Positions 2 to 15,005 are shown, counted from the stretch's first letter. The stretch is DNA of 64,000 nucleotides from Bacteroidales bacterium (GCA_007118495.1 SKRM01000017.1:8675-72674), one strand, 5' to 3'. A program made the numbers and translations. Notes: generated from the sequence alone by a model not told the origin.

Positions 2-967
2 AGTCACGAAGGTGTCAGCAAAATAACTGTTTCATCGTGTGAAATGGCCCATTACTTCAGCACCCAATGGAATGATATTACCATCGCTTTCCCGGTTAAT
101 ATTTTAGAAATTAACACTATTAATAATCTGGCAGCCAAAATTAATCTCAATATTTTACTTGAATCAGAACAAAGTGCTGGCTTCATGGTCAGTCACGCCA
201 AAGAAAATCTCGGGTTTTTTATCAAAATTGATACAGGCTCTCACCGCACCGGGCTACTCCCTGAAAACAAACAGACCATTAACCGCATTCTGGAGATTAC
301 AACAAAAAATAAATTGCTTGAATTTAAAGGATTTTTGAGCCACGCAGGCCATACCTATAATTGCAATACATACAATGAAGTCAGGGATATATACCATAAA
401 AACCTGGTTATTCTTCAGGAGCTTAAACAATTGTATATTGGTCAGTTTCCCAATCTTATTCTGTCAACGGGTGACACTCCCTCTGCAAGTATGCTTGAAG
501 ATTATGAAGGCGTTGATGAGATCAGACCCGGCAATTTTGTATTTTATGACCTCACCCAGCTCACCATTGGTGCTGCTAATGCCAGTCAGATTGCCATTGC
601 CATGAGATGCCCTGTTGTGGCCGTTCATAAACACAGAAATGAAGTGGTGCTATATGGTGGAGGCATCCATTTTTCGAAAGAATACATTGACTATCCCGGA
701 TTAGGAAAAATCTTCGGTTTACCTGTCAAACAGAATACGGATGGAACATGGGGCAAGGTTGTTGAAAAGGCCTGTCTGTCAAAGCTGTCACAAGAGCACG
801 GTATACTAAGGGCACCAAAAGAATGGATCGATACATGCAATATTGGTGACACAGTTTTTTTGCTGCCTGTGCATGCTTGTATGACGGTGAGTTGCATGAA
901 GAAATATCAGCGGGTTGGGTGCAATTTCTCCAATGGGGATAAAAATGAAATTAAAGCAATGGGATAA
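2..967 (+). CDS. PLP-dependent D-serine dehydratase-like / D-threonine aldolase-family enzyme (alanine-racemase fold); 5' end cut by window edge
   Basis: The frame is open from nt 2 (SHEGVSKITVSSCE precedes the listed Met at 44), so the gene starts upstream of the window. Motifs IKIDTGSHRTG, SHAGHTY, STGDTPS, EIRPGNFVFYD and LLPVHAC fit this family. Confidence 0.6.
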   Translation, partial: SHEGVSKITVSSCEMAHYFSTQWNDITIAFPVNILEINTINNLAAKINLNILLESEQSAGFMVSHAKENLGFFIKIDTGSHRTGLLPENKQTINRILEITTKNKLLEFKGFLSHAGHTYNCNTYNEVRDIYHKNLVILQELKQLYIGQFPNLILSTGDTPSASMLEDYEGVDEIRPGNFVFYDLTQLTIGAANASQIAIAMRCPVVAVHKHRNEVVLYGGGIHFSKEYIDYPGLGKIFGLPVKQNTDGTWGKVVEKACLSKLSQEHGILRAPKEWIDTCNIGDTVFLLPVHACMTVSCMKKYQRVGCNFSNGDKNEIKAMG

Positions 968-1013
968 TGGTAGTTTCTGACTACATACCTGAAAACAACA
1001 TCATGATTTGCGT

Positions 1014-1631
1014 CTAGTATTGTGATATCATAGATGTTTCAACAATGAGATTGAAGTGAATATCAATAACGTCTGAGACCCTTACCAACCCGAACCCAGG
1101 TGATGGCGGATCAATATTGAAATCTGACATCCGCAATTTTTTCGATCCTTTTACATGAAAGGTATATCCGTCTCCCTGGTTAAGCTCAACATCAACCTCG
1201 GTTGTTCTCGATACACCATTAATGAGTATTTCAATTACCGCTGTTAAATAATCAGCATTACTTGTCTTGTGTTCATCATGCATATGGGTTTCAATAAGTC
1301 GAATGTGAATATATGGATTATCCTTTCCCCCCAGTGCATTTTGAAAATCTTTGTTCATGAGGCGATTCTTACAGTCAAATGAACTCACCATCAGGTCAAG
1401 TTGGGCATCTGTAAACTGCAGGACATTTTCTGCAGGAAGAAAATCTGCCAATATGAATCCCCTGGGCATATGGCTTTCAGAGAGACAAAAAAATGAATTG
1501 ATATTTGTTGAGCCATGTATGGTCACCTGGCTCTCCCGGTGAATATGGTACGCATAAAAGCCACCTTCTGAATTTGAAGAAGCGAAGAAAGCAAGGTTTA
1601 TCATTGCGATAAATAGCATGAACCTGATCAT
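1014..1631 (-). CDS. Divergent YceI-like periplasmic lipid/polyisoprenoid-binding family protein
   Basis: 205 aa with a hydrophobic N-terminus (MIRFMLFIAMINLAFFASS). YceI-like layout: VTIHGSTNINSF, LINGVSRTTEVDVEL, KLRMSDFNIDPP...VSDVIDIHFNLIV. Third gene of the minus-strand operon that starts at 3652. Confidence 0.55.
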   Translation of the reverse strand: MIRFMLFIAMINLAFFASSNSEGGFYAYHIHRESQVTIHGSTNINSFFCLSESHMPRGFILADFLPAENVLQFTDAQLDLMVSSFDCKNRLMNKDFQNALGGKDNPYIHIRLIETHMHDEHKTSNADYLTAVIEILINGVSRTTEVDVELNQGDGYTFHVKGSKKLRMSDFNIDPPSPGFGLVRVSDVIDIHFNLIVETSMISQY

Positions 1632-1699
1632 TTTCCGGGTGGTTTATGGGTTTATAAAATTGGGTGGGGCACAAAGACCCCACCCATGCATGTTAGGTC

Positions 1700-3046
1700 T
1701 TAAAATGCAATGGCAGCTTCAATCATTAAGCCGCTGAATTCTCCACCATGGCGATAGTCATTGGGGTCAAAGTCATTGAATCGCTGGTTAACATATTCCA
1801 GCTTCACCAACATATTCTGTGTGGTAAACCAGCCCAGGGCAAACTGAAGTCTGTCAACTGAAACATCACCGTTAGGACCAGAAAGTTCAGCTTTAACCTG
1901 GTTATAGCGAGCTCCTACATAAAACTGCTCGTTGCGGGCAAAGCGATAAACAACCTCGCCGGCAAACTGGGTTGCTCTGCGGTCATCTACGTTGGCATTG
2001 TGTGTACCAGTCGATACCTCATATGCGCCAAAGAACTCAAGTCCGCGGTATTTGATAAACGGCTGAACAATGAATGAAGTAACCTGATGTGTAAAATCAG
2101 GTGAAAGCCTGCCCGATGTAAAACGGTTTGCAGCGTCAGAGGCCTGAACAATTCCGCCGGCACGGAAATTCTGATAGAATTCAGGTTCCATAGCCATATA
2201 GTACCTTGAACCGGCACGGTCACCTGCATAAAGGGTGTTGCGGGTGGTTCCCGGGTTGGTGTACATACTGGCTGTCAGTCGGAAGCGAAGGTCATCAGAA
2301 ACCTGATCATCAAATCCAACCTTTGCAATAACAGAAGGGCTTTTATCGGTTTCGCCATAGTCGCGAACATCACCTGCAATCAAACCACCTGATACACCCA
2401 GCATCATGAAGTACTTTGAACTTGGAAACACATATACCTCACCACCAATTTCAGTGGTAAAGGCATCCATGATGTAATTACCAACAAAGGGGTTGTAGAA
2501 GGTGCGGCCATTGTCGCTGCGACGAAAATGCTGATCTCCATAGTTAAACATCATATGTCCGATGCGAACACTGACATAGTCTTCGAACCACTGGGGATTG
2601 TCCAGCATGGATAATTTGTCAAACTGAATGTATCCACCTTTTACCCAGAACTCCGGATGGTGACGTGATGACATATACGATTCAAGCGACATCCTGATGC
2701 CATCACCCAATTGCACATCAAAATTTAAATTGGCTGTTGCCAGGTTAAAACCTGAACTTAACGGGTAAAGGGCATTCACATTGGTTCCCTGTACTTCTCT
2801 TACATTGGCTTCATTGCTGTGGCTGAGCATTTGCATTTGCTGGGTAAAGTTTCCTCCAACCCTAACCCTGAATCCATCAAAGGGAACGGTATCAGCCAGA
2901 AAGGTTTCAAACACATTCAACCCACCTTTATCTGGTGTTCTGAAATAGCCAATATCAGGCTGCTGTCCAAGAGTCATTAAAGGCAGCGCCAACAACAGTG
3001 CACTCACGAATAAGTTTCTAAAATTAGTTTTCATAAAATGTAACAT
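1700..3046 (-). CDS. Outer-membrane beta-barrel porin-like protein (family not assigned)
   Basis: 448 aa with a signal peptide (FVSALLLALPLMTLGQQ); the Met at 3034 is an alternative start. Gly/Tyr-rich alternating strands, and the C-terminus ...MIEAAIAF ends in Phe as in OM barrels. Confidence 0.6.
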   Translation of the reverse strand: MLHFMKTNFRNLFVSALLLALPLMTLGQQPDIGYFRTPDKGGLNVFETFLADTVPFDGFRVRVGGNFTQQMQMLSHSNEANVREVQGTNVNALYPLSSGFNLATANLNFDVQLGDGIRMSLESYMSSRHHPEFWVKGGYIQFDKLSMLDNPQWFEDYVSVRIGHMMFNYGDQHFRRSDNGRTFYNPFVGNYIMDAFTTEIGGEVYVFPSSKYFMMLGVSGGLIAGDVRDYGETDKSPSVIAKVGFDDQVSDDLRFRLTASMYTNPGTTRNTLYAGDRAGSRYYMAMEPEFYQNFRAGGIVQASDAANRFTSGRLSPDFTHQVTSFIVQPFIKYRGLEFFGAYEVSTGTHNANVDDRRATQFAGEVVYRFARNEQFYVGARYNQVKAELSGPNGDVSVDRLQFALGWFTTQNMLVKLEYVNQRFNDFDPNDYRHGGEFSGLMIEAAIAF

Positions 3047-3070
3047 GATTATAATTGGTTAAACAAAAAA

Positions 3071-3652
3071 TTATCTTGGTGATACAACAACCCTATACGA
3101 TATTTCAACTTCTTCGCCAGTACGCAATGCGCCAAACATGGCTGTGGGTGGTTTCATACGGTAATCGGTCATGTCAATCTTCTGTGTGCCTGAAAACTCA
3201 AGGTCGCCATTTGGTAATACACGGCCAACCGTATTGAGTTCAACCACTCTTGAAACTCCTGCAATGGTCATAACCCCCCTGGTAGTCATTCTGGCAGTGC
3301 CAGGGTTTTCGGCCAATGTGAGTACTTCTCTCAACACAAAATCGATATTGGGATTACTACGCGTATCAAGGGTTTCATTAATTTTTGAATTCATCATCCG
3401 TCCCTCAGAACCTTTAATTGAAGTCGCATCAATACGGATATTCGCGTTTTTCACAGAGGTTATTTTCCCATCCTCAATAACCACTTCAATGGTTCCACTC
3501 GCCTTCTCTACATCTGCAGACCATGATTGTAGATTTGAGGTACCGTCAATGGTTATGTCATGGGTTTTTATCTGGTAAGTTTGCTGGGCCTCAACTGTTA
3601 ATGAGCCAAGGATGATCGCAGCCAACAACAAAATTTTGGTTTTTTTAAACAT
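3071..3652 (-). CDS. YceI family periplasmic protein
   Basis: 193 aa with a signal peptide (MFKKTKILLLAAIILGSLTVEAQ). YceI-like blocks: ITIDGTSNLQSW, IDATSIKGSEGRMMNSKINETLDTRSNPNIDF, MTIAGVSRVVEL, KIDMTDYRMKPP. Confidence 0.75.
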   Translation of the reverse strand: MFKKTKILLLAAIILGSLTVEAQQTYQIKTHDITIDGTSNLQSWSADVEKASGTIEVVIEDGKITSVKNANIRIDATSIKGSEGRMMNSKINETLDTRSNPNIDFVLREVLTLAENPGTARMTTRGVMTIAGVSRVVELNTVGRVLPNGDLEFSGTQKIDMTDYRMKPPTAMFGALRTGEEVEISYRVVVSPR

Positions 3653-3722
3653 GGTTTGGTATTGATTTATCTGTTAAACAATGTCGGCATTAGCCGATTT
3701 TACTTCCATGCCATTGTAAAGG

Positions 3723-3737
3723 GCAATTAACCTGCCA
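3723..3737 (-). promoter_or_regulatory. Sigma-54 (-24/-12) promoter of the YceI-porin-YceI operon
   Basis: The minus strand reads TGGCAGGTTAATTGC, against the consensus TGGCAC-N5-TTGC. GG and GC have correct spacing, with one mismatch. It lies 71 nt upstream of the ATG at 3652 and directly downstream of a sigma-54 activator gene. Confidence 0.75.
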
Positions 3738-3780
3738 GTAAATAACAGAAATGACAATTATGCATACAAGTACCTGTATA

Positions 3781-3818
3781 CCAAACAAAAAACCCTGTGG
3801 CAAAAATGCACACAGGGT
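3781..3818 (-). terminator. Intrinsic terminator of the SBP-kinase-activator operon
   Basis: The minus strand reads ACCCTGTG-(11-nt loop)-CACAGGGT followed by TTTTTGTTTGG. It lies 64 nt after the activator stop codon. Confidence 0.65.
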
Positions 3819-3834
3819 AAACCACCTGTAATTT

Positions 3835-3870
3835 TCGACGAGTTTTCGTCGATCATGACGAAATTTCGTC
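3835..3870. promoter_or_regulatory. Two adjacent palindromes sharing the half-site TTTCGTC/GACGAAA; candidate enhancer (UAS) for the NtrC-type activator
   Basis: TCGACGA-N4-TCGTCGA (3835-3852) and GACGAAATTTCGTC (3857-3870). They lie about 100-135 bp upstream of the -24/-12 element. Confidence 0.5.
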
Positions 3871-3881
3871 TGTTGGGTGTC

Positions 3882-5234
3882 TTAAAACTCCAGTTTGAGC
3901 TTTTCTATCCGTGACTTCAGGGTCGAGGCAGGTACGGACAATATTTTTGCAGCCTTGGCTTTGTTTCCACCCGAGCGCAACAAGGCATCTCTGATGGCAT
4001 TCGACTCAACCTCCCTGACTATTTCATCAAGGGGTTTGTTCTCAAAGTAGAAACAGGTGTGGGGCTTACCCGGAAATCTGATTTCCATGGGCAGGCTTTT
4101 TTTATCAATAACCCCCCCGGGTGAAAGCAAGACCAAACGCTCCATGAGGTTTTTCAATTCTCTTACATTTCCCGGAAAACTATACTGTTTAAGCAACTCC
4201 ACAACCTCTTCGTCCATATGCATTGAGGATGATTGGGCAAACTCTTCCATAAAGTGATTGGTCAGCAACACGATATCTTCAGGACGTTCACGCAATGGAG
4301 GGAGCCTGATGGGGAATACATTCAGCCTGTAAAACAGGTCTTCACGAAACTTACCCTCTGCCACCATTTGCTGGAGGTCTTTCTTGGTGCTGGCTATTAC
4401 CCTCACATCTACCTTGATGGTTTCGGTGCCTCCTACCCTTTCAATTTCACCTTCTTCAAGAGCCCGTAAAAGTTTCACCTGTAAATCATAAGGTATATCG
4501 TCAATATCATCAAGGTAGAGGGTGCCTTTATGGGCCATTTCAAATCTGCCGGTTCTTGCTGTATCGGCTCCGGTAAATGCACCCTTAACATGTCCGAAAA
4601 GCTCGCTCTCAAAAACCTCTCTGGACAATATGGCACAACTTACCTTGATAAAAGGACCTTTTTTACGGTTACTGTTATAGTGAATCACATTGGTCAACAA
4701 CTCTTTGCCTGTTCCGGTTTCGCCCGTTATCAGCACTGTGGTTGACTTCTCAGCAATGAGTCCTACCAGATCAAAAACAGCCTGGGTTGCTTTACTCTTT
4801 CCGACAAATGCCGACATATTGTATTTTTTGTCCACTTCTTTCCGAAGCTGACGGTTCTCTGCCCTTACCTGTTTTAACTCACCTATTCTATCAATGGTTA
4901 GGATTAGTTCATCCATACTGAAAGGCTTCGAAATGTAATCATATGCCCCCAGCTTCATGGCTTTAACGGCAGTATCAACAGTCGCATGTGCTGTCATCAG
5001 AAGCACTGAAACATCAGGAAATTTTTTCCGTATCTCTTGTGTAAGTTCCAGGCCATCCATATCGGGCATTTTCAGGTCGGTCAGCACAAGGTCTACTGGG
5101 TTCTCCGCATCTCTCAGGTACTGAAGTGCGGCCCTGGCTGATGAAAACTCATGCACCTGGTGGCCTTCTTCTCTAAGGTCATCTGCTGTAGTGACCCTGA
5201 TTATCCGCTCATCATCGACAATAAGTATATGCAT
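3882..5234 (-). CDS. Sigma-54-dependent response regulator (NtrC/AtoC type: REC + AAA+ + Fis-type HTH)
   Basis: Receiver N-terminus (MHILIVDDE...DLVLTDLKMPDMDG), Walker A GETGTGKE, sigma-54 contact loop GAFTGA, and C-terminal HTH GNKAKAAKILSVPASTLKSRI. Confidence 0.93.
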   Translation of the reverse strand: MHILIVDDERIIRVTTADDLREEGHQVHEFSSARAALQYLRDAENPVDLVLTDLKMPDMDGLELTQEIRKKFPDVSVLLMTAHATVDTAVKAMKLGAYDYISKPFSMDELILTIDRIGELKQVRAENRQLRKEVDKKYNMSAFVGKSKATQAVFDLVGLIAEKSTTVLITGETGTGKELLTNVIHYNSNRKKGPFIKVSCAILSREVFESELFGHVKGAFTGADTARTGRFEMAHKGTLYLDDIDDIPYDLQVKLLRALEEGEIERVGGTETIKVDVRVIASTKKDLQQMVAEGKFREDLFYRLNVFPIRLPPLRERPEDIVLLTNHFMEEFAQSSSMHMDEEVVELLKQYSFPGNVRELKNLMERLVLLSPGGVIDKKSLPMEIRFPGKPHTCFYFENKPLDEIVREVESNAIRDALLRSGGNKAKAAKILSVPASTLKSRIEKLKLEF

Positions 5235-5237
5235 GAT

Positions 5238-6746
5238 CTACTGCTGTTTGGGTAAAATAACATAAAAAGTGCTGCCTTCGCCTGGCTCGCTGTTAACCTG
5301 GATTTGTCCTCCGTGATCTCTGATTATCTGGTATGAAACCGAAAGGCCCAGGCCAGTTCCTTCTCCCACAACCTTCGTTGTGTAAAACGGGTCAAAAATC
5401 TTTCCAATTTCTGCTTTTGAGATTCCAATGCCATTATCCCGAAATATAACCCGAATCCATTGTTCGTCATTTTCAGCAGTTACTACTATCTCTCCTTTTA
5501 AGGATTGATCAACCTCCATCCGCTCAGCTACTGAGTCAATGGCATTGATAATGATGTTCAGGAATACCTGTTCAATTCTGTTCTGGGCAGCCTGTAATTG
5601 CACATTACAGGCCTGATAGTCAATTACAATATTTACCTTGCGGCTTTTTATGCGGTATTCAGCGAGTTTTACGGCTTGCTTGATAATGTCACATACATTG
5701 ACTACTTCATATGACAAATCACCTTTTCTGCTAAATGTAAGCAAATCTTTAATTACCTGCTCTATGCGGCTCAATGCCTCCTGCATCATAAGGGTGTACT
5801 CCCTCACCTGAGCAGTATTTTCCGGATTTTTGGCAATGCGTTTTAAGCCAATACCAATTCCCGCAAGGGGATTGTTTATCTCATGCGCCACACCTGCTGT
5901 CAAAGTACCTATTGATGCCAGTTTTTCTGATTGCAACAGAGATTGCTGCAGTCTGTTCATGGTAAGGTAAGCGTCTTCAAGACGCTGAAGCATATTGCTG
6001 TAGTTTTGATAAAGCACGTCAATTTCATCATCCATTCCAAAAAGCCGTCTTAGTCTGAAGTATGGACGCATGGTTGATTCACGGATATTCCTTATCCCTG
6101 CCTGAATACTGCGGATTTCAATAGATGCCGACTGCATGCTTAAGGCCCTGAGCGGACTGGCAATGGTATATGAAAAAAACAAGGCAGCAAGTAATCCCAA
6201 CAGAAAAAAGATGGCAATCATAAACCATAACCTCCATAAGGTCATACGCACCTGGGCAAGGATCTCATTTTCCAATATGCCTATTCTGACAACACCAAGC
6301 CCTGTATCCATGCTGGCCATTGAAAAATCTCTGATGATCAGGTCGGGGTTATGGGTGTCGGATAAACGCATAATACCCGGTTGGTCATCAGCAGCAGGCC
6401 AGTTCAGATTGATTAAATCGGGTGGTACCTGGTTTCTGAATGAATGGGCTAGCACTTCATGCTGCCCACTGACAATAAATGCATAGTGAATGGTAGTGTC
6501 AATGGCCATCATATCATTGATCAACATATTCAGTCCTGCGGGATCATTATTCAGGATATAACCCACCGACTGTTCTGCCATGGCCCTGGTTATAAAGTAT
6601 CCGCGCTTCTCAAATTCATGATTCAGTGCATTGCTAACCGAATTTCTGACAATGATCGCATTCAAGGTTCCGAACAAGGCAACAGTCAGGCTTATTCCAA
6701 ACGCAAACTTGGTAAATAAGGGCCATTTTACTTTGCCAGGTATCAT
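5238..6746 (-). CDS. Membrane sensor histidine kinase
   Basis: Two TM segments flank a ~140-aa periplasmic region. H-box GVAHEINNPL, N-box FLNIIINAIDS, G-boxes DNGIGI and GTGLGLSVS. Its start overlaps the upstream gene's stop by 4 nt. Confidence 0.9.
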   Translation of the reverse strand: MIPGKVKWPLFTKFAFGISLTVALFGTLNAIIVRNSVSNALNHEFEKRGYFITRAMAEQSVGYILNNDPAGLNMLINDMMAIDTTIHYAFIVSGQHEVLAHSFRNQVPPDLINLNWPAADDQPGIMRLSDTHNPDLIIRDFSMASMDTGLGVVRIGILENEILAQVRMTLWRLWFMIAIFFLLGLLAALFFSYTIASPLRALSMQSASIEIRSIQAGIRNIRESTMRPYFRLRRLFGMDDEIDVLYQNYSNMLQRLEDAYLTMNRLQQSLLQSEKLASIGTLTAGVAHEINNPLAGIGIGLKRIAKNPENTAQVREYTLMMQEALSRIEQVIKDLLTFSRKGDLSYEVVNVCDIIKQAVKLAEYRIKSRKVNIVIDYQACNVQLQAAQNRIEQVFLNIIINAIDSVAERMEVDQSLKGEIVVTAENDEQWIRVIFRDNGIGISKAEIGKIFDPFYTTKVVGEGTGLGLSVSYQIIRDHGGQIQVNSEPGEGSTFYVILPKQQ

Positions 6747-7642
6747 ATTCTTTCTTTTATTTGTCTGAGTCCGTCGTACAAGGTATCACCCACTACGATG
6801 AAACGGTCTATCTGCAATTCATCCAAAATGGGTTTGGTGCGCGGATTCTCATGCATGGCAGTGAAGAATTGCCTGATACTCTCCTGCAATTCGCGGTTCA
6901 TAAGCAATGAATTGACTACCGGGGGGATTCCTCCATAAGTTGTCTTTTCAATTATCCGTATACCTGCTACAAGTTCAGGGTTTTTCGCAGCAAGGTATTC
7001 AAATATCAGTCCATTCACTGCCGCTCCATCAATTACATTTCGCGCCACCATTTGGATAGACACATCGTGTGAAAGCGAAAATACCACTTCATCAAAAAAT
7101 TCATCTGCAGTTGTTCCTTCTTCAGAAAGTTTCAGGTCAACAAAAAGCTTACCGGTAAAGCACAAAGGGTCTGAATGGGTAAATCTCTTCCCTTTCAGAT
7201 CTTCAAACCGAAAAATTGGACCAGACTCATTAACTATGATATACCCCCTGTAATATGGGCGTCCCTGAACTACAGGAGCCACAAGAAGCTCCATATGATC
7301 AATCCCGAGCAAATAGGCGCCAGAACAAACAAAGGCAATGTCAACCATATTCTGGGCCAGCATTTCATTTACTTCATGATAGGTAGTTCTTTGCTTAAAC
7401 TCAATGGGCATATCCAGAAATTCTGACAGGGCATTGAACAGGTCACGGTAATAGACAAAGCTTTCTCTTGGTGAAATCACAGTTGAAATGGCAACACGCA
7501 GTGACTCTTCATGGTCATCGTTCTCTTGCCGTTCAACTCCACCCGACAGGTCAACTTCTGTCACATCAGGTCTGGGGACATTACATGAGAAAACCAATAC
7601 CAGTAATCCTGCGAAAACCAACCTGGCTTTTATTTGTTTCAT
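6743..7642 (-). CDS. PhnD-like (phosphonate-binding fold) periplasmic substrate-binding lipoprotein, with no ABC permease/ATPase nearby
   Basis: 299 aa with a lipobox (LLVLVFSC). LRVAISTVISPRES...Y..L and a type-2 SBP layout resemble phosphate/phosphonate SBPs. First gene of the kinase/activator operon. Confidence 0.6.
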   Translation of the reverse strand: MKQIKARLVFAGLLVLVFSCNVPRPDVTEVDLSGGVERQENDDHEESLRVAISTVISPRESFVYYRDLFNALSEFLDMPIEFKQRTTYHEVNEMLAQNMVDIAFVCSGAYLLGIDHMELLVAPVVQGRPYYRGYIIVNESGPIFRFEDLKGKRFTHSDPLCFTGKLFVDLKLSEEGTTADEFFDEVVFSLSHDVSIQMVARNVIDGAAVNGLIFEYLAAKNPELVAGIRIIEKTTYGGIPPVVNSLLMNRELQESIRQFFTAMHENPRTKPILDELQIDRFIVVGDTLYDGLRQIKERI

Positions 7643-7767
7643 AGGGCTTGCATACTTTTATCATATAAAAATACATATAATGTTAAACAAATCCATTGCC
7701 ACCATGTTCAGCCGCAAAACCTCTGCCTGACAATCATTTCTAATGCAGCTGTTTTATATAAAAAACT

Positions 7768-7775
7768 TACATTTG
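7768..7775 (+). promoter_or_regulatory. Bacteroidota-type -7 promoter box (TAnnTTTG)
   Basis: TACATTTG lies 53 nt upstream of the lipoprotein-type start at 7829. Confidence 0.35.
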
Positions 7776-7828
7776 TAGTCAATCATCTACCGATCAATTC
7801 AATATTCATTATCCAAACCAACATCCAC

Positions 7829-10159
7829 ATGAATACATTCAGACCAGTTTTGCCCCTGTTTATCGCGGGCTTTATGTTGTTGATGGCCACGGGGTGCGGC
7901 ATCAATAAAGAACAGGTAAACCTTGAAGATTATCAACGCGCTGAGCGATTTCTGGCCGGGAATACCGCTTCAAAAGTACACAATCTTGTTTCAGGCCTAA
8001 CCTGGCTTGACGATGACAGGCTTCAGTACAGACTGGCACAGTCTGATGGAGCCAGGTTTAAACTGGCAGACCCTTTAACAGGCGAGATTTCACCGGCATT
8101 TGACCAGGAAAGACTGGCAGGGGGGTTGTCTGCCATTCTGGATGAAGAAATAGATCCCCTCGATCTGCCTTTCAGAACCTTTACGTTTAGTGAAGATAAA
8201 AAACACATCAACTTTACCATCAGAAACTACGACTATACCGCTTCAATTGTTGATTATACCATTGAGCGCAAACGGTTTGATGGCCCGGTGGGCAGAGCCA
8301 ATGAAGCTGTATCGCCTGACGGGAAAAAAGCGGTTTATATCAGAGACCATAACCTTTGGATGCGTGACCTTCAAACCGGGCGTCAAACCCAACTCACATT
8401 TGACGGCATGGAAGATTTTGGTTATGGCACCAACAATGCCGGATGGTCAAAAAGAGACAGACCGGTGGTACTCTGGTCTCCTGATTCAAGGCGTATAGCA
8501 ACTTTTCAGCAAGACGCCCGTGGTGTGCATGACATGTACCTGGTTTCAACTGCAGTAGGCCATGGCACACTGCACAAATGGAAATATCCTTTACCGGGCG
8601 ACAGCCTGATTTTTCGTATTGAAAGGGTCGTCATCAATCTTGAGCCCACACCCCGCGTTGTCAGGCTACAAATGGAGCCTGATCTTCAAAGAGGTGCACT
8701 CACCGACCACGTTGCTGACCGTGCCGGAAACCTACTTGATGCACAATGGAGCAAAGATGGCAGCCGGCTGGTATTCCTTTCTGTTTCAAGAGATCACAAA
8801 ATCAACCAATTAAGAGAAGCTGATCCCAACACCGGTAGGGTGAGAAACATTCTGCGTGAAGATGTCGAGACCTTTTTTGAATCAGGATACAATATGGTTC
8901 ACAACTGGCATGTGCTGCACGAAACAAATGAGGTGATCTGGTTTTCACAGCGCGACAACTGGAGCCATCTGTATCTTTATGACCTGAACAACCTGCAATT
9001 GAAACATCAGATAACCAGTGGTTACTGGAATGTCATCCAGGTCAGGCATATTGATCTTGACAACAGGCGTATTTACTTTACAGGTAGCTGCAGAGAAGAA
9101 GGCAATCCCTACTACAATTACCTGTACCGTATTGATATGGACGGACAAAACCTTACCCTACTGAGCCCCGAATATGCAAACCACATCACCACCCTGTCGC
9201 ACTCAGCCAATTACTTTGCAGATATTTACTCAACCCATGACACCCCACCGGTGGCCCAAATCAGAGACAGTAATGGTGAAAAGATCATGGTGTTGGCCGA
9301 AGCTGATATTTCAGAACTCAAGGCCATGGGCTGGCAACCTCCCATCGAGTTTACGGTCAAGGCCCGTGATGGTGAAACCGACTTATGGGGATTAATGTAT
9401 AAACCCACCAATTTAAGAAGAAACAGGTCTTATCCCATATTGAACTACCTGTATCCGGGCCCGCAGTCAGGCAGTGTGGGCAGCCGCTCTTTTAATGCCT
9501 CACGCTCAGATAAACAGGCCATGGCCGAACTGGGCTTTATTGTTGTTGAGGTTGATGCCATGGGAACTCCAGGACGCTCAAAAGCATTCCATGATGCATA
9601 TTATGGCAATATGGGTGATAATGGCTTGCCAGATCAGATAAGCATGATACAGCAGCTGGCTGAAAGACACCGGTATATGGATCTTGACAGGGTCGGTATT
9701 TACGGCCATTCTGGCGGAGGTTTTGCCTCAACCCGTGCAATTCTTGAATACCCTGATTTTTACAAGGTAGCCGTTTCAAGCGCAGGTAACCACGACAACC
9801 GGAACTATACAGATTCATGGGCTGAAAAATGGCAAGGGTTGCTTGAAGTATTAGACAATGATGAAGCAAAAGAAACAAATTATGACAACCAGGCTAACCA
9901 ACTTCTGGCTGATAACCTGAAGGGAAAGCTGCTGATAAGCCATGGTACACTTGATGCAAATGTGCCTCCATACAGCACCTACCTTGTGGTTAACGCACTG
10001 ATCGCTGCCAACAAGGATTTTGACCTGATTATGTTCCCCAACAGGGGACACGGCTATTACGGTGAGCCTTACAATATGCGCAGGCGATGGGATTATTTTG
10101 TTCGCCACCTGAAAAACACAGAGCCCCCAAAAGAATACACCTTCGGGCAGCTTGATTAA
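7829..10159 (+). CDS. S9B family serine peptidase, dipeptidyl-peptidase IV-like (beta-propeller + alpha/beta hydrolase)
   Basis: The start is moved to the Met of MNTFRPVLPLFIAGFMLLMATGC (lipoprotein signal); the listed 65-aa N-terminal extension runs through the divergent promoter region. DPPIV_N-like WSPDSRRIATFQQD, nucleophile elbow GIYGHSGGGF, and C-terminal HGTLDANV...NRGHG. Confidence 0.88.
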   Translation: MNTFRPVLPLFIAGFMLLMATGCGINKEQVNLEDYQRAERFLAGNTASKVHNLVSGLTWLDDDRLQYRLAQSDGARFKLADPLTGEISPAFDQERLAGGLSAILDEEIDPLDLPFRTFTFSEDKKHINFTIRNYDYTASIVDYTIERKRFDGPVGRANEAVSPDGKKAVYIRDHNLWMRDLQTGRQTQLTFDGMEDFGYGTNNAGWSKRDRPVVLWSPDSRRIATFQQDARGVHDMYLVSTAVGHGTLHKWKYPLPGDSLIFRIERVVINLEPTPRVVRLQMEPDLQRGALTDHVADRAGNLLDAQWSKDGSRLVFLSVSRDHKINQLREADPNTGRVRNILREDVETFFESGYNMVHNWHVLHETNEVIWFSQRDNWSHLYLYDLNNLQLKHQITSGYWNVIQVRHIDLDNRRIYFTGSCREEGNPYYNYLYRIDMDGQNLTLLSPEYANHITTLSHSANYFADIYSTHDTPPVAQIRDSNGEKIMVLAEADISELKAMGWQPPIEFTVKARDGETDLWGLMYKPTNLRRNRSYPILNYLYPGPQSGSVGSRSFNASRSDKQAMAELGFIVVEVDAMGTPGRSKAFHDAYYGNMGDNGLPDQISMIQQLAERHRYMDLDRVGIYGHSGGGFASTRAILEYPDFYKVAVSSAGNHDNRNYTDSWAEKWQGLLEVLDNDEAKETNYDNQANQLLADNLKGKLLISHGTLDANVPPYSTYLVVNALIAANKDFDLIMFPNRGHGYYGEPYNMRRRWDYFVRHLKNTEPPKEYTFGQLD

Positions 10160-10181
10160 TCAGGTTCAATAGGCTTTTCAG

Positions 10182-10220
10182 AAGCGGTTTCCTGTCATAG
10201 ACCGGAAACCGCTTTTATTA
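10182..10220. terminator. Intrinsic terminator between convergent genes (mainly for the S9 peptidase)
   Basis: Perfect 10-bp stem AGCGGTTTCC/GGAAACCGCT with an 11-nt loop, followed by TTTTATTATTT on the plus strand. Confidence 0.7.
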
Positions 10221-10814
10221 TTTATTCAGGTTGACCTTACCTGCTATTGCTTGCCTTTCTTCATTGCTGGCCAGCTTTTCCATGTACTCCCTGACAAGAT
10301 CGGGCACATGTTCACCCAGAGGCACAAATATGAGCGCCGCGCTGTTCATACAGTATCTGAGTCCGGTGGGAGGCGGACCATCATTAAAAACATGTCCCAG
10401 GTGAGAACCACTCGACGAGTCAACAACTTCTGTACGTATCATGCCATGGGTATTATCAGTCCGGTAATAAACCGACTCCGGGGTAATCGGTTCAAAAAAA
10501 CTGGGCCACCCGCAGCTGCTTTGAAATTTGGCGTCGGCAATAAACAAAGGCTGACCTGTTGCAGCTGAAAAATAAATACCCGGACGGTCTTCATCAACAT
10601 ATTTACCTGTAAATGGCCTTTCAGTTCCGGCCCTCCTCAAAATGTAAAACTGTTCATCTGAAAGGGTACGCTTCCAGGCATCTTCTGTTCGTAACACCCG
10701 GTATGTACCAGGATCATTGTCTTTTAAGCCTGCTGTCATATCTGTATGATTCTGTATGAGCTGTGCAAACCCACCCAGGGGCAGGAGCATCAGCATGATC
10801 AAAATAATCCTCAT
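10218..10814 (-). CDS. msrB: Peptide-methionine (R)-S-oxide reductase MsrB with N-terminal signal peptide; zinc-less variant
   Basis: SSCGWPSFFEPI, GSHLGHVFNDGP and RYCMNSAAL are MsrB signatures. The N-terminus MRIILIMLMLLPLGGFAQ looks like a signal peptide. Both CxxC zinc motifs are replaced (GIYFSAATGQ; VDSSSGSH). Confidence 0.88.
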   Translation of the reverse strand: MRIILIMLMLLPLGGFAQLIQNHTDMTAGLKDNDPGTYRVLRTEDAWKRTLSDEQFYILRRAGTERPFTGKYVDEDRPGIYFSAATGQPLFIADAKFQSSCGWPSFFEPITPESVYYRTDNTHGMIRTEVVDSSSGSHLGHVFNDGPPPTGLRYCMNSAALIFVPLGEHVPDLVREYMEKLASNEERQAIAGKVNLNK

Positions 10815-10816
10815 CT

Positions 10817-10840
10817 GAATTGTATTATAGCTTACAATTC
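10817..10840. repeat. AT-rich inverted repeat GAATTGTA-N8-TACAATTC abutting the msrB start codon
   Basis: Perfect 8-bp arms. It ends 3 nt from the msrB ATG (10814) and lies 30 nt downstream of the M16 stop. Confidence 0.4.
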
Positions 10841-10869
10841 AACAAACAATCAAAACTTAAAAAGGTTTA

Positions 10870-13782
10870 TCAGTATACAAAGAGCTGATCTCTGTCAAGC
10901 TCTTTTACCGGTCCGAACAATTGTTCCACAGCCTCAAAGTCAATATGGTCTCTGTGGCCAAGAATCAGGTAGGCCTTTGGCTTGTTACGGATAAAATTAT
11001 TGCTAAACGCTTCAATGTTTCCAATGGTTATCGAGGCAATACCATTGAATTGTTCTTTTCTGATGTCTTCTGTATGCCCCATCCGTAGGTTGCCCAGATA
11101 AGTTGAGATAAGCTGGTCACCTGAAAGCCGTTCTGTGCGGATATTCGACAGCATCTGCTCTTTTGACAGCCTGAAAGCTGTCTCTGACAATGGCACCTCA
11201 TCAAACAGTTCATTAAACGCACTAAATGCCTCAATTACCTTGTCATTCTGGGTTGCGATATAACTGGAATGCATAAAGTAGCCATCAGGGTGTACAGGGG
11301 CCTCATATGATGCCCTGGCAGCATAGGCCAATCCCCTTTTTTCTCTAAGCTCCTGAAATACGATCGACTGCATACCGCTTCCAAAATACCTGTTATATAA
11401 TGAGGCAAGTATAGCCAGTTCGAAATCATAGGCCGCCCCCCTGGCAACCGTCATCAGGTATGACTGGTTTGCCTCAAAATGGACAAAATATACCTCGTCT
11501 TTTTCCTGCTTCCTGGCCTTGATATAATCAACATCAGCCGGATGATACAATGTGTCAGGGATATACCGGTATTGCCGGGTAATGTGCATTACCTCGTCAA
11601 GGCTATGAGGTCCGTGATACAAAACATCATGCTGAATACTCCACAAAGAGCGTATCAGATCAATCAATACACCAGCTGTAAGCTGATCCAGTTCCTGATC
11701 GCTCAGGTCAAGTGTCGACGGATTTCGTTCGCCAAACAAGGCATAATGTTCCATGGCGGTAAGCAATGCCTGTTGGTTGTTTTTATTGGCAAGCCGGGTG
11801 GTCTTTGCCTGGTTTATACGACCTGCCAGTACCTCATCATCAGGCACTGCATTCCAAACCAGGTTTTCAAGCATTGATAATGATTCCTCCAGGTTGTGAC
11901 TCAATCCTCTAAGTGAAATCCTGATATTATCTCTCCTAACACTCATGCTCAGATTGGTTGCCAAACGATAAAAACCTTCATTGATCTGGTCAGCTGTCTG
12001 GTCATGTGTGGATAAAAAGCGTAATAACGAGGCTGCATAAGCAAAACGCGGGTCATGCATGCTGCCCAGGTTGTAATTAAATGTCAATGAAAAGGTGGGT
12101 AAATAATGATTGCTTACAACCAGATAGCCTGGTTTACCCTCCTGCTTGTTCACATGTATACTCTGCTGAAAATCAACAAACACGGGTTCAGTTTCATCCA
12201 CCTGGTCAGCTACAATTGATCTGAAAAACTCAGATTCAAGATCGCGGTTTATATGGATGGGACTTATTGGAGGCTTATCAACCAGTTCAATCCCTTCAGG
12301 AGTTCCCTGCCGTTTATACACAACAACATAGTTGTCATGGAAGTGTTCGTTGGCAAAGTCTATAATATCTTGACGGCTAATTCTTCCAAGCCTGTCAAGA
12401 TATGAAACATGATTTTCCCAATCAATGTCCATCATAAAAGCTTGGGCAATATCCCTGGCCACATTATGGATCGATTCCATACGCCGGGCCCGGGTTGACT
12501 TCTGGTTATTGACAGCAGCTTCAATCAACCAGTCAGGAAATTCGCCTCTTTTCAGGCTTTCAATCTGCTCAATAAGCAGATCATGCACTTCTTCAAGGCT
12601 TTGGCCGGGTTTATTTCTGCCCATAAGGCTGATGATTGAATAATCGGCCAGGTTCGTTGTTGAAGCTCCAGCCACCCTTGTTAGCATGGGCTGATTCAGA
12701 TTGCGATCAATAATGCCGGCCCTTCCATTAAATAAGATACCCGAGATAAGATCTATATAAAGGGCATCATCTGAGCCCGCCCCGCCAAAGCGCCAGCCAA
12801 TTTGCACCATTTCTGACTGCTGACCCGTAACCTCCAAAACCACAGGTCCATCCACTGGCTTTTCAGCTTTAGTTTCCAAGGCTATAGCCCGTCCGGGTTG
12901 CATCTGGCCAAAATAACGGTTTATAACTTCAATGGCCTCATCCGGATCAAAATCGCCCGATAAGACCACTGCCATGTTTTCCGGAACATAATAATCATCA
13001 AAAAATAACCGGATATTTTTCATGGAGGGGTTCTTCAGGTGCTCTGGCTCTCCGAGTGTAGTCTGCAATCCATATGGATGATGAGGAAAAAGCCCTTTAT
13101 ACATCGCCTCAGTTACCATGCGCATGTCATTGGTAAGCGACATGTTCTTTTCTTCGTACACGGCTTCCAGTTCGGTATGAAATAAACGAAGCACGGGTTG
13201 TCTGAATCTCTCAAACTGTATCCGGGTCCAGTTTTCAAGCTGATTAGCCGGAATGTTTTCAATATAATAAGTATAATCATATGATGTTGCTGCGTTGGTT
13301 CCAGTTGAACCAATAGCATTCATGAGTCTGCTGTACTCGTTGGCAATTGCAAACTTTGAGGCTTCAAACGAAAGGCTGTCTATCAATCTGTAAATGGATG
13401 CTCTTTCATGTGAATCAGTCGTTTGCCTGTACAATTCAAACAACTCCTCAATTGCATTAATTAACGGTTTTTCGTTCTCCCAGTCGCTGGTTCCGAAAAG
13501 TGTGGTCCCCTTAAACATCATGTGCTCAAAATAATGAGCAAGGCCGGTGGTTTCAGCCGGATCATGTTTACTTCCGACCCTGAAGGCAATATAGGTTTGA
13601 ATACGTGGTGTATTATTGTTAACTGCCAAATAGACTTTCATGCCGTTCTCAAGAGTGTGAATCCGTACCTGCAGGGGATCGGTTTTTACAATTTGGCAGG
13701 GAATTTCGGCCTTTGCCGGAACGGATATTCCGGTAAGCAAAAAAACTACGGCAATAATAATCCGGGTAAAACGATCGGTCAT
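10870..13782 (-). CDS. M16 family (pitrilysin/insulinase-like) zinc peptidase, double-length
   Basis: Inverted zinc motif HYFEHMMFKGT. About 970 aa with two M16 active/inactive unit pairs. The start is placed at the Met of MTDRFTRIIIAVVFLLTG (signal-like), which avoids overlap with the upstream gene. Confidence 0.88.
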   Translation of the reverse strand: MTDRFTRIIIAVVFLLTGISVPAKAEIPCQIVKTDPLQVRIHTLENGMKVYLAVNNNTPRIQTYIAFRVGSKHDPAETTGLAHYFEHMMFKGTTLFGTSDWENEKPLINAIEELFELYRQTTDSHERASIYRLIDSLSFEASKFAIANEYSRLMNAIGSTGTNAATSYDYTYYIENIPANQLENWTRIQFERFRQPVLRLFHTELEAVYEEKNMSLTNDMRMVTEAMYKGLFPHHPYGLQTTLGEPEHLKNPSMKNIRLFFDDYYVPENMAVVLSGDFDPDEAIEVINRYFGQMQPGRAIALETKAEKPVDGPVVLEVTGQQSEMVQIGWRFGGAGSDDALYIDLISGILFNGRAGIIDRNLNQPMLTRVAGASTTNLADYSIISLMGRNKPGQSLEEVHDLLIEQIESLKRGEFPDWLIEAAVNNQKSTRARRMESIHNVARDIAQAFMMDIDWENHVSYLDRLGRISRQDIIDFANEHFHDNYVVVYKRQGTPEGIELVDKPPISPIHINRDLESEFFRSIVADQVDETEPVFVDFQQSIHVNKQEGKPGYLVVSNHYLPTFSLTFNYNLGSMHDPRFAYAASLLRFLSTHDQTADQINEGFYRLATNLSMSVRRDNIRISLRGLSHNLEESLSMLENLVWNAVPDDEVLAGRINQAKTTRLANKNNQQALLTAMEHYALFGERNPSTLDLSDQELDQLTAGVLIDLIRSLWSIQHDVLYHGPHSLDEVMHITRQYRYIPDTLYHPADVDYIKARKQEKDEVYFVHFEANQSYLMTVARGAAYDFELAILASLYNRYFGSGMQSIVFQELREKRGLAYAARASYEAPVHPDGYFMHSSYIATQNDKVIEAFSAFNELFDEVPLSETAFRLSKEQMLSNIRTERLSGDQLISTYLGNLRMGHTEDIRKEQFNGIASITIGNIEAFSNNFIRNKPKAYLILGHRDHIDFEAVEQLFGPVKELDRDQLFVY

Positions 13783-13814
13783 AAAATCAATGTTAAATAA
13801 AATTGGTTTCTGGC

Positions 13815-15005
13815 TTACAGGGTCACATAAAAAGTCCACTTGGCTGTAAACATATTCTCATAAAAATGGCTGTCATTGAATATTGCATACTCAAGACGCA
13901 ATCTGTGGTTTATCAGTGGAAAATAAGACAGCCCAAAGGTATAGGCTTTTTCTTCAATGAATGACAGCTGTGTTTCAGAAATTACTGGTCGCTCAAGTTG
14001 CTGATACATCAAACTCCCTTCAAATTTCTCGCCAAATGGCCACAGTATAAAGGCATAACCCCCATTGAAATTCATTCCAGACAATGTACGGTTCATCCAC
14101 TCAGCTTGCAAGAAAACATAATTACCGGGCGTCAGTGCCCATGCCGCATTCATCCCCGCCCCAAAGGCGTTTAACCCGGGTTTTCCATGATCTGAAAGCT
14201 CTATCTCAGGAAAATCAGGCAACCAGGCCAAAAGTGGATGCCCCGCATGCTCATGATCAAAATATCCAAAACCTCTTAATCCGGCCATGACTTTTTCATT
14301 TTTCCAAACCAGATCAAGCACTGATGTCATAACCATTGCCTCAGTTTCATAACTGTTCTTGGCAGCCTCAGCAACAAGGCTTGCCCGAAAGGGACCCTGG
14401 CCCACAGACCACTTAACGCTGCCACCATCCAAGGCCAGGCCATGGTTGCTACCCCAGTATTCTGAGAAAATCCTGGGTTTCATATTAAACTGAAAATCTG
14501 CAAGGTGCAGCTGGTTGGCATAGCTGATGACTGAAAACATGCGACCAACTGATATTTCAAGTTTTGAAAGCGGGCTTGTATAGGTAAGAAAAAATTCCTC
14601 AACCTCCAGTTCCACATCATATGCCGAAGCGTCATTACGTCGTATATCCATTGGGAGGTTCAGAAAATCATGCCAAACCGATGAGTCGAAGTGAAAAGCC
14701 GCAAACAAATGAATACGGTCACTGAGCTTTCCATCCAGATCAACCATAATGGCCGAGAGTCCTCCGAGTCCGCGCTTATCTGCCTGTTCAAACATGAAAA
14801 AAGATTCGCCCCCTATTTCGATTTCAAATGCAGGAAATGTTGATCCGGCAAAAAGAGAAAATTCCGGACTTCTTGTATTTTCGATGCCGCCCTCCGGTTC
14901 GACGCCTCCTGAAGCGAGCAACGGAAGAAATACAACCATCAATAGAACCACATATGATAAATTTGCAGGTGCTAATTTTTGTTGGGATGTTTTCATTTTA
15001 ATCAT
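13815..15005 (-). CDS. Hypothetical outer-membrane beta-barrel protein
   Basis: 396 aa with a signal-like VVLLMVVFLPLLASGG. Alternating strand pattern, His-rich patch FDHEHAGHP, and an aromatic-rich C-terminus FTAKWTFYVTL. It lies 32 nt upstream of the M16 gene on the same strand. Confidence 0.5.
   Translation of the reverse strand: MIKMKTSQQKLAPANLSYVVLLMVVFLPLLASGGVEPEGGIENTRSPEFSLFAGSTFPAFEIEIGGESFFMFEQADKRGLGGLSAIMVDLDGKLSDRIHLFAAFHFDSSVWHDFLNLPMDIRRNDASAYDVELEVEEFFLTYTSPLSKLEISVGRMFSVISYANQLHLADFQFNMKPRIFSEYWGSNHGLALDGGSVKWSVGQGPFRASLVAEAAKNSYETEAMVMTSVLDLVWKNEKVMAGLRGFGYFDHEHAGHPLLAWLPDFPEIELSDHGKPGLNAFGAGMNAAWALTPGNYVFLQAEWMNRTLSGMNFNGGYAFILWPFGEKFEGSLMYQQLERPVISETQLSFIEEKAYTFGLSYFPLINHRLRLEYAIFNDSHFYENMFTAKWTFYVTL

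Follow-up and report, generated by a model that had tools for sequence, protein, structure and literature searches.

How might a Bacteroidales bacterium join a periplasmic sensor to an envelope operon? The question is raised by a six-gene locus in a 64,000-nucleotide stretch of DNA (GCA_007118495.1 SKRM01000017.1:8675-72674), which we refer to as the window. Three regulatory genes, here named X (a binding lipoprotein), S (a sensor histidine kinase) and R (a sigma-54-dependent response regulator), are followed by a triad encoding a YceI-family protein (YceI_A), an outer-membrane beta-barrel and a second YceI-family protein (YceI_B). A first-pass annotation had described the locus as a self-contained sigma-54 circuit aimed at a YceI-porin-YceI operon, and had named no characterised system of this composition. 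We checked the positions, translations and motifs of the open reading frames (ORFs) on the window. All six lie on the minus strand where they had been placed (Table 1), and their close packing had been described correctly: X and S overlap by 4 nt (6743-6746), S and R are 3 nt apart (5235-5237), and the triad has gaps of 24 nt between YceI_A and the barrel gene (3047-3070) and 68 nt between the barrel gene and YceI_B (1632-1699). As set out below, X-S-R belongs to the AioXSR/ArrXSR type of three-component system on sequence grounds, and a conserved enhancer and candidate sigma-54 promoter separate it from the triad.

X matches the Pfam family Phosphonate-bd (PF12974) over its full length with 162 bits, so the family behind the earlier label "PhnD-like" holds, and PhnD itself is a distant relative. 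In a sequence search of solved structures, ArrX of Chrysiogenes arsenatis (E 2.5e-45) and AioX of Rhizobium sp. NT-26 (E 4e-29) were much closer to X than PhnD (E 8e-7), and PtxB was found at E 7e-14. Under the PhnD equivalog model, X scored 78.6 bits, below the cut-off of 261. A signal peptide and the lipobox residue Cys20, a cysteine kept across orthologues, mark X as a lipoprotein. No ATP-binding cassette (ABC) transporter genes lie within 10 kb of the locus. The proposal that a free lipoprotein of the solute-binding protein (SBP) type acts as a co-sensor is thus supported by its nearest solved relatives, by the conserved lipobox cysteine and by the absence of ABC genes nearby.

S contains HisKA (46 bits) and HATPase_c (95 bits) domains, with an sCache_3_2 match of 24.4 bits that falls under the cut-off of 28.4. 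Two transmembrane helices (residues ~10-28 and ~166-184) surround a Cache-like periplasmic domain of ~140 aa, followed by the dimerisation/histidine-phosphotransfer and catalytic domains. The locus does not encode a TtrS-type fusion, in which a PhnD-like domain and a kinase share one polypeptide, as X and S are separate ORFs and S has its own Cache-like periplasmic domain. Translation and Pfam searches confirmed each of the domains claimed for R: a receiver domain (Response_reg, 110 bits), an AAA+ domain with the GETGTGKE and GAFTGA motifs (Sigma54_activat, 228 bits) and a Fis-type helix-turn-helix (HTH_8, 37.5 bits), with an AAA lid between the last two. The top NCBIfam models for R were AtoC (469 bits against a cut-off of 714) and NtrC. 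Every NCBIfam score fell under its cut-off, and R is not an equivalog of a named regulator such as AtoC, NtrC or ZraR.

Full-length comparison of R with AioR gave 34% identity (E 3e-78), and S shares the topology of AioS from strain NT-26, to which its cytoplasmic part is 25% identical. In the annotated aioXSR-aioBA locus of NT-26, the genes run X-S-R as in the window, and the aioR-aioB spacer contains a palindrome followed by TGGCACAACGATTGC. ArrX and AioX are periplasmic sensors of the ArrXSR, ArxXSR and AioXSR three-component systems, whose binding protein is believed, with its ligand bound, to act on the kinase. AioR and ArxR are sigma-54 activators of the AtoC type, and their conserved site of action lies upstream of an RpoN promoter (PMC5908839). 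Because X is nearest to ArrX and AioX rather than to PhnD, we class the trio, judged by its sequence, as an AioXSR/ArrXSR-type three-component system, an already-known design. For the regulatory half, then, a characterised system of this composition does exist, contrary to the first-pass annotation; the output alone is uncharacterised. We consider the regulatory part of our model highly probable.

A related arrangement was seen on a plasmid of Bacillus sp. DX3.1 (L173; NZ_CP128159.1, 80240-83209), where an X homologue with 39% identity precedes a kinase and a response regulator of ~216 aa. This regulator is too short to hold a sigma-54 AAA+ domain, suggesting that in Firmicutes the X-S pair works with another regulator class.

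We read the intergenic region between R and YceI_A (3882-3652) on the minus strand and ran a repeat finder over it. In this direction, the spacer contains the palindromes GACGAAATTTCGTC and GACGAGTTTTCGTC, a hairpin followed by a T-run, a -24/-12 element and a 5' leader of ~60 nt. The element TGGCAGGTTAATTGC (TGGCAG-N5-TTGC) has GG at -24, GC at -12, the exact spacing and the right orientation, with a predicted transcription start near 3711-3712. This is the promoter match noted in the first-pass annotation; it is present at 3737-3723, with a distance to the ATG of 70 nt, not 71. Allowing one mismatch, the two copies of the palindrome (GACGA-N4-TCGTC) are the only ones in the window, against 0.44 expected. 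The hairpin folds with -16.2 kcal/mol and is followed by TTTTTT.

For comparison, an alignment of 25 barrel family members led us to 80 Bacteroidota loci from species-representative genomes, in which relatives of the six proteins were located by tblastn. As far as contig ends permit, essentially all loci have YceI-barrel-YceI in this order and on one strand. The triad occurs in two groups, one comprising Bacteroidales, Lentimicrobiaceae, Rikenellaceae and Tenuifilaceae, the other Saprospiraceae, Lewinellaceae and other Chitinophagales. In 33 species-level loci, all from the first group, the triad is immediately preceded by X-S-R in the same orientation. None of the 39 loci of the second group has X-S-R within 10 kb, nor do two of the first (L021 and L027). 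Among the syntenic loci, R is 66-77% identical (61% for a truncated match in L034). The triad is found throughout the phylum and the trio beside it in one clade, implying that the triad is a self-contained module and the trio a lineage-specific addition; adjacency of the two operons across Bacteroidota, which the first-pass annotation had put forward as a test, did not hold beyond that clade. Clustering of all neighbouring ORFs of the sampled loci revealed no other conserved neighbour, such as an inner-membrane transporter or a cytochrome b561. Three loci (L099, L101, L102) are rearranged, with the barrel gene placed ahead of X at a distance of ~2.4 kb and, in L101, a pair of YceI-like genes after R; the linkage survives this altered order.

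We then scored upstream regions for GACGA-N4-TCGTC with at most one mismatch. The palindrome was present in 36/36 regions that are linked to the activator or whose contig breaks off just upstream, usually as a pair 20 bp apart, and in 1 of 40 other loci (L028, whose contig extends just ~900 bp upstream). Wherever the proximal palindrome could serve as an anchor, TGG-N8-TTG(C/A/T) was found 112-118 nt downstream of it. A strict GG/GC search returned the element in 21 loci, 20 of them with an adjacent activator and one truncated upstream (L010), and in none of the 37 group-B loci (L044-L082), all of which are without the activator. At locus L012, a first cassette has palindromes at 5923 and 5943 and, after them, TGGTTTATAAATTGT at 6056, and a second cassette consists of a palindrome at 9167, preceded by a degenerate copy, and CGGCCTGCAAATTGC at 9281. 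The two cassettes have identical geometry and stand before two different operons, and that 21-kb locus contains no further palindrome. This double cassette is the strongest single piece of comparative evidence for the proposed sigma-54 circuit. A hairpin with a T-run between enhancer and promoter was found in 16/35 loci, mostly close relatives of the window. Its recurrence at one position with unrelated sequences is the pattern expected of a functional terminator of X-S-R.

These data bear on a reading in which the arrangement is coincidental: X would serve a distant ABC transporter for phosphonate or phosphite, the -24/-12 match would be due to chance, and the triad would be transcribed from a housekeeping-type promoter or by read-through. 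Sequences within one mismatch of TGGCAC-N5-TTGC do occur at chance level in the window (7 against 6.2 expected), X matches Phosphonate-bd and is named a transporter component in source annotations, and the triad works without X-S-R in other clades. Yet X and S overlap by 4 nt, the order X-S-R-triad is kept in 33 loci, the geometry of palindrome and promoter is kept only where R is present, and a terminator stands upstream of the promoter. Moreover, X falls far below the PhnD equivalog cut-off, is far nearer to the sensor SBPs and has no ABC genes nearby. We therefore regard coincidence as extremely improbable. The position of the element and its conservation with the palindrome pair go far beyond chance, and the sigma-54 circuit seems well supported by the comparative data. 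That X, S and R form a unit directed at the triad through a sigma-54 promoter is supported by the synteny in 33 loci and the conserved enhancer/promoter architecture.

In Saprospiraceae, Lewinellaceae and other Chitinophagales, triads that lack X-S-R (L044-L082) carry another upstream element, one to three GTGAT-N4-ATCAC palindromes of the Crp/Fnr-type box, ~70-112 nt upstream of the first YceI gene. The boxes are often 22 bp apart and lie ~40 nt upstream of a TAnnTTTG promoter motif. With at most one mismatch they were found in 18/37 of these loci, compared with 0/39 in the other clade and 0.5 in shuffles. This suggests that the same triad is there under a different dedicated regulator.

Which ligand X may recognise was approached through its pocket. 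The family pocket consists of Tyr88, Cys106, Tyr131, Ser161, Ser163, His192 and Asp210, of which Cys106 is family-specific (PMC5908839). At AioX positions 88/106/131/161/162/163/192/210, X of the window has Tyr-Cys-Tyr-Cys-Phe-Thr-His-Asn, and the canonical Ser161, Ser163 and Asp210 are thus replaced by Cys, Thr and Asn. All 28 syntenic orthologues have Cys106, Tyr131 and His192, and 27 have Tyr88 (L003 is truncated there); all four residues are near-invariant among ~150 homologues. Ser163 is mostly Thr in the syntenic orthologues, and Ser161 is Cys in 11/28, the subclade of the window. Residue 210 in the 28 triad-linked orthologues is Asn in 26 and Ser in two, never Asp, and homologues of X that are 41-47% identical and lie outside the triad context retain Asp210.

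To remove the bias of sampling by the barrel, we scanned metagenome contigs with an SBP alignment and scored 80 loci. Sensors with Asn or Ser at position 210 were followed by the triad in nine loci and by a molybdenum (Mo)-enzyme operon in none, with six other contexts (five truncated downstream, and L098) and three contigs too short. For Asp210, the corresponding numbers were 0 triads, 15 Mo-enzyme operons, 13 other and 25 too short; for His210, they were 0, 0, 5 and 4. L098 was considered as an exception to the rule that Asn210 goes with the triad and was rejected as such, as its contig ends before the position of the triad, and L012, 93% identical to it, has the triad after an inserted operon. 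The correlation between residue 210 and output is striking in these alignments, and it remains a correlation. As Asp210 is replaced by Asn or Ser in the triad-linked sensors and is Asp in relatives linked to Arr/Ttr-like reductases, the ligand of X is probably not the arsenate or arsenite of the canonical members.

The same pocket could also be read in favour of arsenic: the circuit would be as we describe it, with arsenate, arsenite or a thio- or methyl-arsenical as ligand and the triad as an arsenic-related envelope module. The nearest solved relatives of X are arsenic sensors, Cys106, which bonds arsenite, is invariant, and a second pocket cysteine (Cys161) marks the window's subclade, with the signature YCYCFTHN in 46/153 aligned sequences; a second thiol would favour trivalent arsenic. 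The samples of the nearest relatives are labelled CSSed and SL_3KL sediment, which we take to be soda-lake sediments, where arsenic and thioarsenates are abundant, and sibling X-S-R loci adjoin ars genes and an ArrA-like enzyme. However, Asp210 is present in ArrX, AioX and all siblings linked to Mo enzymes and is replaced in all triad-linked sensors, the second cysteine is missing from most triad-linked clades, and no ars genes were found within 10 kb of the window locus. On this evidence we consider an arsenic ligand unlikely, and retain a model in which the circuit responds to another small ligand.

The sibling loci, from Flavobacteriaceae and other metagenomic bacteria (L083, L086-L088, L091 and 15 loci of the SBP sample), show what else this sensor family controls. 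Their proteins are 41-47% (X), 35-36% (S) and 54-56% (R) identical to those of the window, and they share with it the palindromes paired 20 bp apart (here ACG-N6-CGT), the -24/-12 element and a barrel among the output genes, in the siblings as the first. They differ in keeping Asp210 and in their output, in which X-S-R is followed by an outer-membrane barrel of ~340 aa and then by one of two molybdopterin enzyme sets. The Ttr-like set has Fer4, mostly with an NrfD subunit, and a Mo subunit of ~1,075 aa (460 bits under the TtrA model, cut-off 1750). The ArrA-like set has an 845-aa subunit (1,142 bits over its full length, cut-off 1600) and Fer4. Complete arsR-arsC-arsM-acr3 clusters adjoin L083 and L088, and acr3-like genes are present in L155 and L171. 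We tried to derive the 448-aa barrel and the ~340-aa barrels from a common ancestor and rejected this, as profile-profile comparison with hhalign gave a probability of 0.75%, with no detectable homology. The shared layout with a porin first is therefore analogy, not descent.

Loci with an Asp210 X-S-R, a ~340-aa barrel and a TtrB/TtrA-like molybdoenzyme include L083 (5715-18538), L088 (2153-16891), L086, L087, L155 and L171, with an NrfD-type subunit in L086-L088. Loci of the L083/L088 type could encode an uncharacterised Ttr-like reductase linked to arsenic or thio-arsenic. At L091 (6767-15705), the genes after X-S-R encode a Porin_O_P-like barrel and an ArrA-like subunit of full length together with Fer4, with multihaem cytochrome genes upstream; judged by its genes, the locus is of the Arr/Arx type, with a dedicated porin at the head of its regulon.

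A third type of output in this sensor family has EB_dh (haem-b type, DOMON-like), a small protein of ~125 aa, a DUF5777 membrane beta-barrel and, in some cases, cytochrome c; in His210 loci the cytochrome c is included. This type was seen at L012 (5915-9400), L098 (11787-14924), L166 (5270-8414), L090, L132, L167 and L168. In L012, the EB_dh/DUF5777 operon lies between X-S-R and the triad and has its own enhancer-promoter cassette. By sequence, then, one regulatory cassette serves at least three outputs, each with an outer-membrane barrel, and the barrels are non-homologous.

These neighbours raise the possibility that the triad belongs to an extracytoplasmic redox or cofactor pathway, in which an isoprenoid quinone or another hydrophobic cofactor of that sort would be the cargo of the YceI proteins and the barrel would be dedicated to that pathway, with no solute uptake. 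The cassettes of L012 drive both the triad and the DUF5777 barrel/EB_dh operon, His210 relatives control EB_dh, small protein, DUF5777 and cytochrome c, and Asp210 relatives control respiratory Mo enzymes. Furthermore, YceI_B has an invariant cysteine pair, and characterised YceI proteins pair with cytochrome b561 and bind isoprenoid ligands (PMC9113575). But the triad proteins have no redox cofactor motif, no cytochrome b561 gene lies nearby, YceI_A and YceI_B look like ordinary soluble periplasmic proteins, and the association with EB_dh is limited to one lineage (L012, L098). A redox role of this kind appears very unlikely to us.

A broader, quite unlikely version may be stated beside it. 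The Asn/Ser210 branch might have been retuned to another periplasmic signal and switch on a hitherto unrecognised envelope pathway of anaerobic Bacteroidota, in which the two YceI proteins and a dedicated OprP-like barrel handle a redox-active or amphipathic anion outside the cytoplasm. Some lineages would co-regulate the triad with a DUF5777 barrel and an EB_dh haem protein. If this were true, the triad would correspond in function to the operons of porin and reductase under Asp210 control. For the triad itself, our best guess remains an anion-type inducible channel with two periplasmic binders.

The barrel has no Pfam or NCBIfam match, and its family comprises at least 7,954 homologues, every one unnamed and without a Pfam domain. 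The claim that it is a porin nevertheless gained support from an AlphaFold2 (AF2) model with ~16-18 strands (predicted local distance difference test score, pLDDT, 75; predicted template-modelling score 0.77), and the sequence ends in a C-terminal Phe. In a Foldseek search with this model, OprP and OprO ranked first (2o4v, 4rjw; E ~1e-13, template-modelling score 0.59-0.64, 11% identity), ahead of general porins, and the model agrees with their 16-stranded fold. At the sequence level, the window barrel is not a member of PF07396, and Porin_O_P gave weak matches in 3/25 family members, the best with E 5.6e-4. A long helix-containing loop after strand 5 (residues 166-198) holds the densest invariant run of the family, including Asp171, Arg175, Arg176 and Asp178 in the 25-member alignment, and in the model it may narrow the pore, as the constriction loop of classical porins does. 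Gene callers place the start of the barrel at Met5 (3034), giving 444 aa, and this is probably the true start.

Both YceI proteins score above the Pfam YceI (PF04264) cut-off of 23.7, so that HMM searches upheld this family assignment as they did that of X. The two are ~25% identical to each other, and each is conserved phylum-wide. YceI_A has a signal peptide of the signal-peptidase-I type, invariant Gly37, Ser39 and Trp44, Thr38 in 92% and usually no cysteine; its gene lies immediately upstream of the barrel gene in 76 loci. No solved relative of YceI_A was found in a sequence search of the PDB. The YceI_B gene lies downstream of the barrel gene in 68 loci, and Cys49 and Cys87, present in all 68, may be joined in a structural disulfide or act as a functional pair of thiols. 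The order and gaps of the YceI-barrel-YceI operon hold as first described, but a conserved terminator-like hairpin separates the third gene from the barrel gene. This spacer folds at -10 kcal/mol or lower in 66/71 loci of both clades (L003-L082), with unrelated sequences, many of which have T-runs. The hairpin is probably a partial terminator or an mRNA-stabilising 3' structure, and its occurrence in 66/71 spacers implies that YceI_B is probably expressed at a level unlike that of the first two genes.

Compared with the AioXSR, ArxXSR and ArrXSR systems of NT-26, Alkalilimnicola ehrlichii and Chrysiogenes arsenatis (PMC5908839), the window shares the order X-S-R, a PhnD-like periplasmic X with Cys106, Tyr88, Tyr131 and His192, an S with two transmembrane helices around a periplasmic domain of ~140 aa, an AtoC/NtrC-type sigma-54 activator and a target operon directly downstream behind a palindrome and an RpoN promoter. 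It differs from them in its phylum, Bacteroidota instead of Proteobacteria or Chrysiogenetes, and in its X, which is a lipoprotein, unlike the proteobacterial proteins, and has Asn/Ser in place of Asp210, Thr in place of Ser163 and, in the window's subclade, Cys in place of Ser161. The enhancer half-site is GACGA, the spacing to the promoter is ~115 nt and a terminator stands between the two. The output is YceI-barrel-YceI, whereas the known outputs are arsenic molybdoenzymes (Aio, Arx, Arr).

For the output, the phosphate and pyrophosphate porins OprP and OprO of Pseudomonas aeruginosa are the top structural match and share the inducible, solute-specific channel that we predict for the window barrel; sequence identity is low and regulation differs. 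We know of no flanking YceI genes for OprP or OprO. Free periplasmic binding proteins activate a membrane kinase in TorT-TorS and LuxP-LuxQ, and the GltB-GtrS-GltR regulon of Pseudomonas aeruginosa includes the porin OprB. Glucose-bound GltB is reported to activate GtrS-GltR, which is needed for glucose transport (PMC7927077). Activation of a membrane kinase by a free binding protein, predicted for the window, is thus shared, but the families are unrelated, and GltB-GtrS-GltR is not known to be sigma-54 dependent, with GltB serving a transporter as well. The YceI lipocalins of Escherichia coli (YceI) and Burkholderia (BcnA) are, like those of the window, small secreted proteins that pass the Pfam threshold. 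In contrast to BcnA and its cytochrome b561 partner LcoA, the window proteins have no such partner, and two divergent paralogues bracket the porin gene; characterised YceI proteins are lipocalins for hydrophobic ligands (PMC5350466, PMC9113575). Literature searches for YceI with porins in Bacteroidetes, with arsenite or arsenic sensing, or with RpoN/sigma-54 yielded no relevant link, and in a Riemerella iron-limitation table, YceI and porin genes are unlinked and show small changes.

Building on the gene anatomy, family relations, synteny and enhancer/promoter geometry, we propose the following mechanism. X would bind a small periplasmic ligand, most likely an oxyanion, and dock on the Cache-like periplasmic domain of S, which would then phosphorylate R. 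R would bind the two GACGA-N4-TCGTC palindromes and activate sigma-54 RNA polymerase at TGGCAG-N5-TTGC, ~115 nt downstream. The hairpin between them would end the X-S-R transcript and insulate the output from read-through. The induced transcript would supply YceI_A and the OprP/OprO-like outer-membrane channel, and the hairpin in the barrel-YceI_B spacer would lower or separate expression of YceI_B. The output might then be an inducible, solute-specific channel with two periplasmic lipocalin-type binders, which would capture the entering solute or protect the envelope. This functional reading of the output is tentative, and we hold it as one possibility. The combined model, in which XSR-type sensing is joined to a sigma-54-driven envelope operon, seems to us rather probable.

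Besides the chance-level frequency of promoter matches in the window, several observations weigh against this model. The GC at -12 is not kept in about one third of the orthologues, which have TTGA or TTGT. L021 and L027, both of the first group, have the triad without X-S-R, and L089, where X-S-R and the triad are divergent, has no clear enhancer-promoter cassette. No rpoN gene was detected in the window by a motif search (an RpoN-box regular expression on the six-frame translation), so that the circuit is probably not literally self-contained as had been proposed. Confidence in the barrel model is moderate (pLDDT 75). The hydrophobic ligands of characterised YceI proteins fit poorly with an oxyanion signal, and uptake is incomplete as a pathway, as no inner-membrane transporter is linked to the triad. 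Finally, pocket residues alone do not determine ligand selectivity in the XSR sensor family (PMC5908839), and the argument from Asp210 is therefore correlative.

The coordinates of all features are collected in Table 1. Like ars genes, a molybdoenzyme was not found within 10 kb of the window locus. The flanking genes (7634-13839 and 44-967) encode a DPP-IV/S9 peptidase, whose listed TTG start is probably placed too far upstream, MsrB, an M16 peptidase and a D-serine-dehydratase-like protein cut by the window edge; they look unconnected with the circuit. A search of Rfam over 900-8000 gave a single sub-threshold match, anti-hemB (22.7 against 49.5 bits), which we took as noise.

Table 1. Genes and regulatory elements of the X-S-R/triad locus, in window coordinates
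Feature	Position	Strand	Description
X, sensor lipoprotein of the AioX/ArxX/ArrX branch of PhnD-like binding proteins	6743-7642	minus	299 aa
S, sensor histidine kinase	5238-6746	minus	502 aa
R, sigma-54-dependent response regulator	3882-5234	minus	450 aa
Putative enhancer (upstream activating sequence)	3837-3870		perfect 14-bp palindromes GACGAGTTTTCGTC (3837-3850) and GACGAAATTTCGTC (3857-3870), 20 bp start to start
Intrinsic-terminator-like hairpin	3787-3818	minus	8-bp stem ACCCTGTG/CACAGGGT, 11-nt loop, T-run
Candidate sigma-54 -24/-12 element TGGCAGGTTAATTGC	3723-3737 (reads 3737-3723)	minus	70 nt before the ATG at 3652
YceI_A, secreted YceI-family lipocalin-like protein	3071-3652	minus	193 aa; Pfam YceI 47.8 bits
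Outer-membrane beta-barrel	1700-3046	minus	448 aa; AF2 model, no Pfam/NCBIfam match
Intercistronic GC-rich hairpin, barrel/YceI_B	1661-1686	minus	10-bp stem, inside the 68-nt gap
YceI_B, second, divergent YceI-family protein	1014-1631	minus	205 aa; Pfam YceI 27.7 bits

New here are the phylum in which the XSR system occurs, the lipoprotein nature of its sensor, the altered pocket and an uncharacterised output. The AioXSR/ArrXSR family thus reaches into Bacteroidota and relatives and is modular, with a single pocket position that tracks the output. Residue 210 may therefore be useful for ligand prediction and for the engineering of oxyanion biosensors. For the triad, a dedicated sensor together with a defined enhancer and promoter would offer a route to the inducing compound, and hence to the function of a module that is widespread in the phylum.

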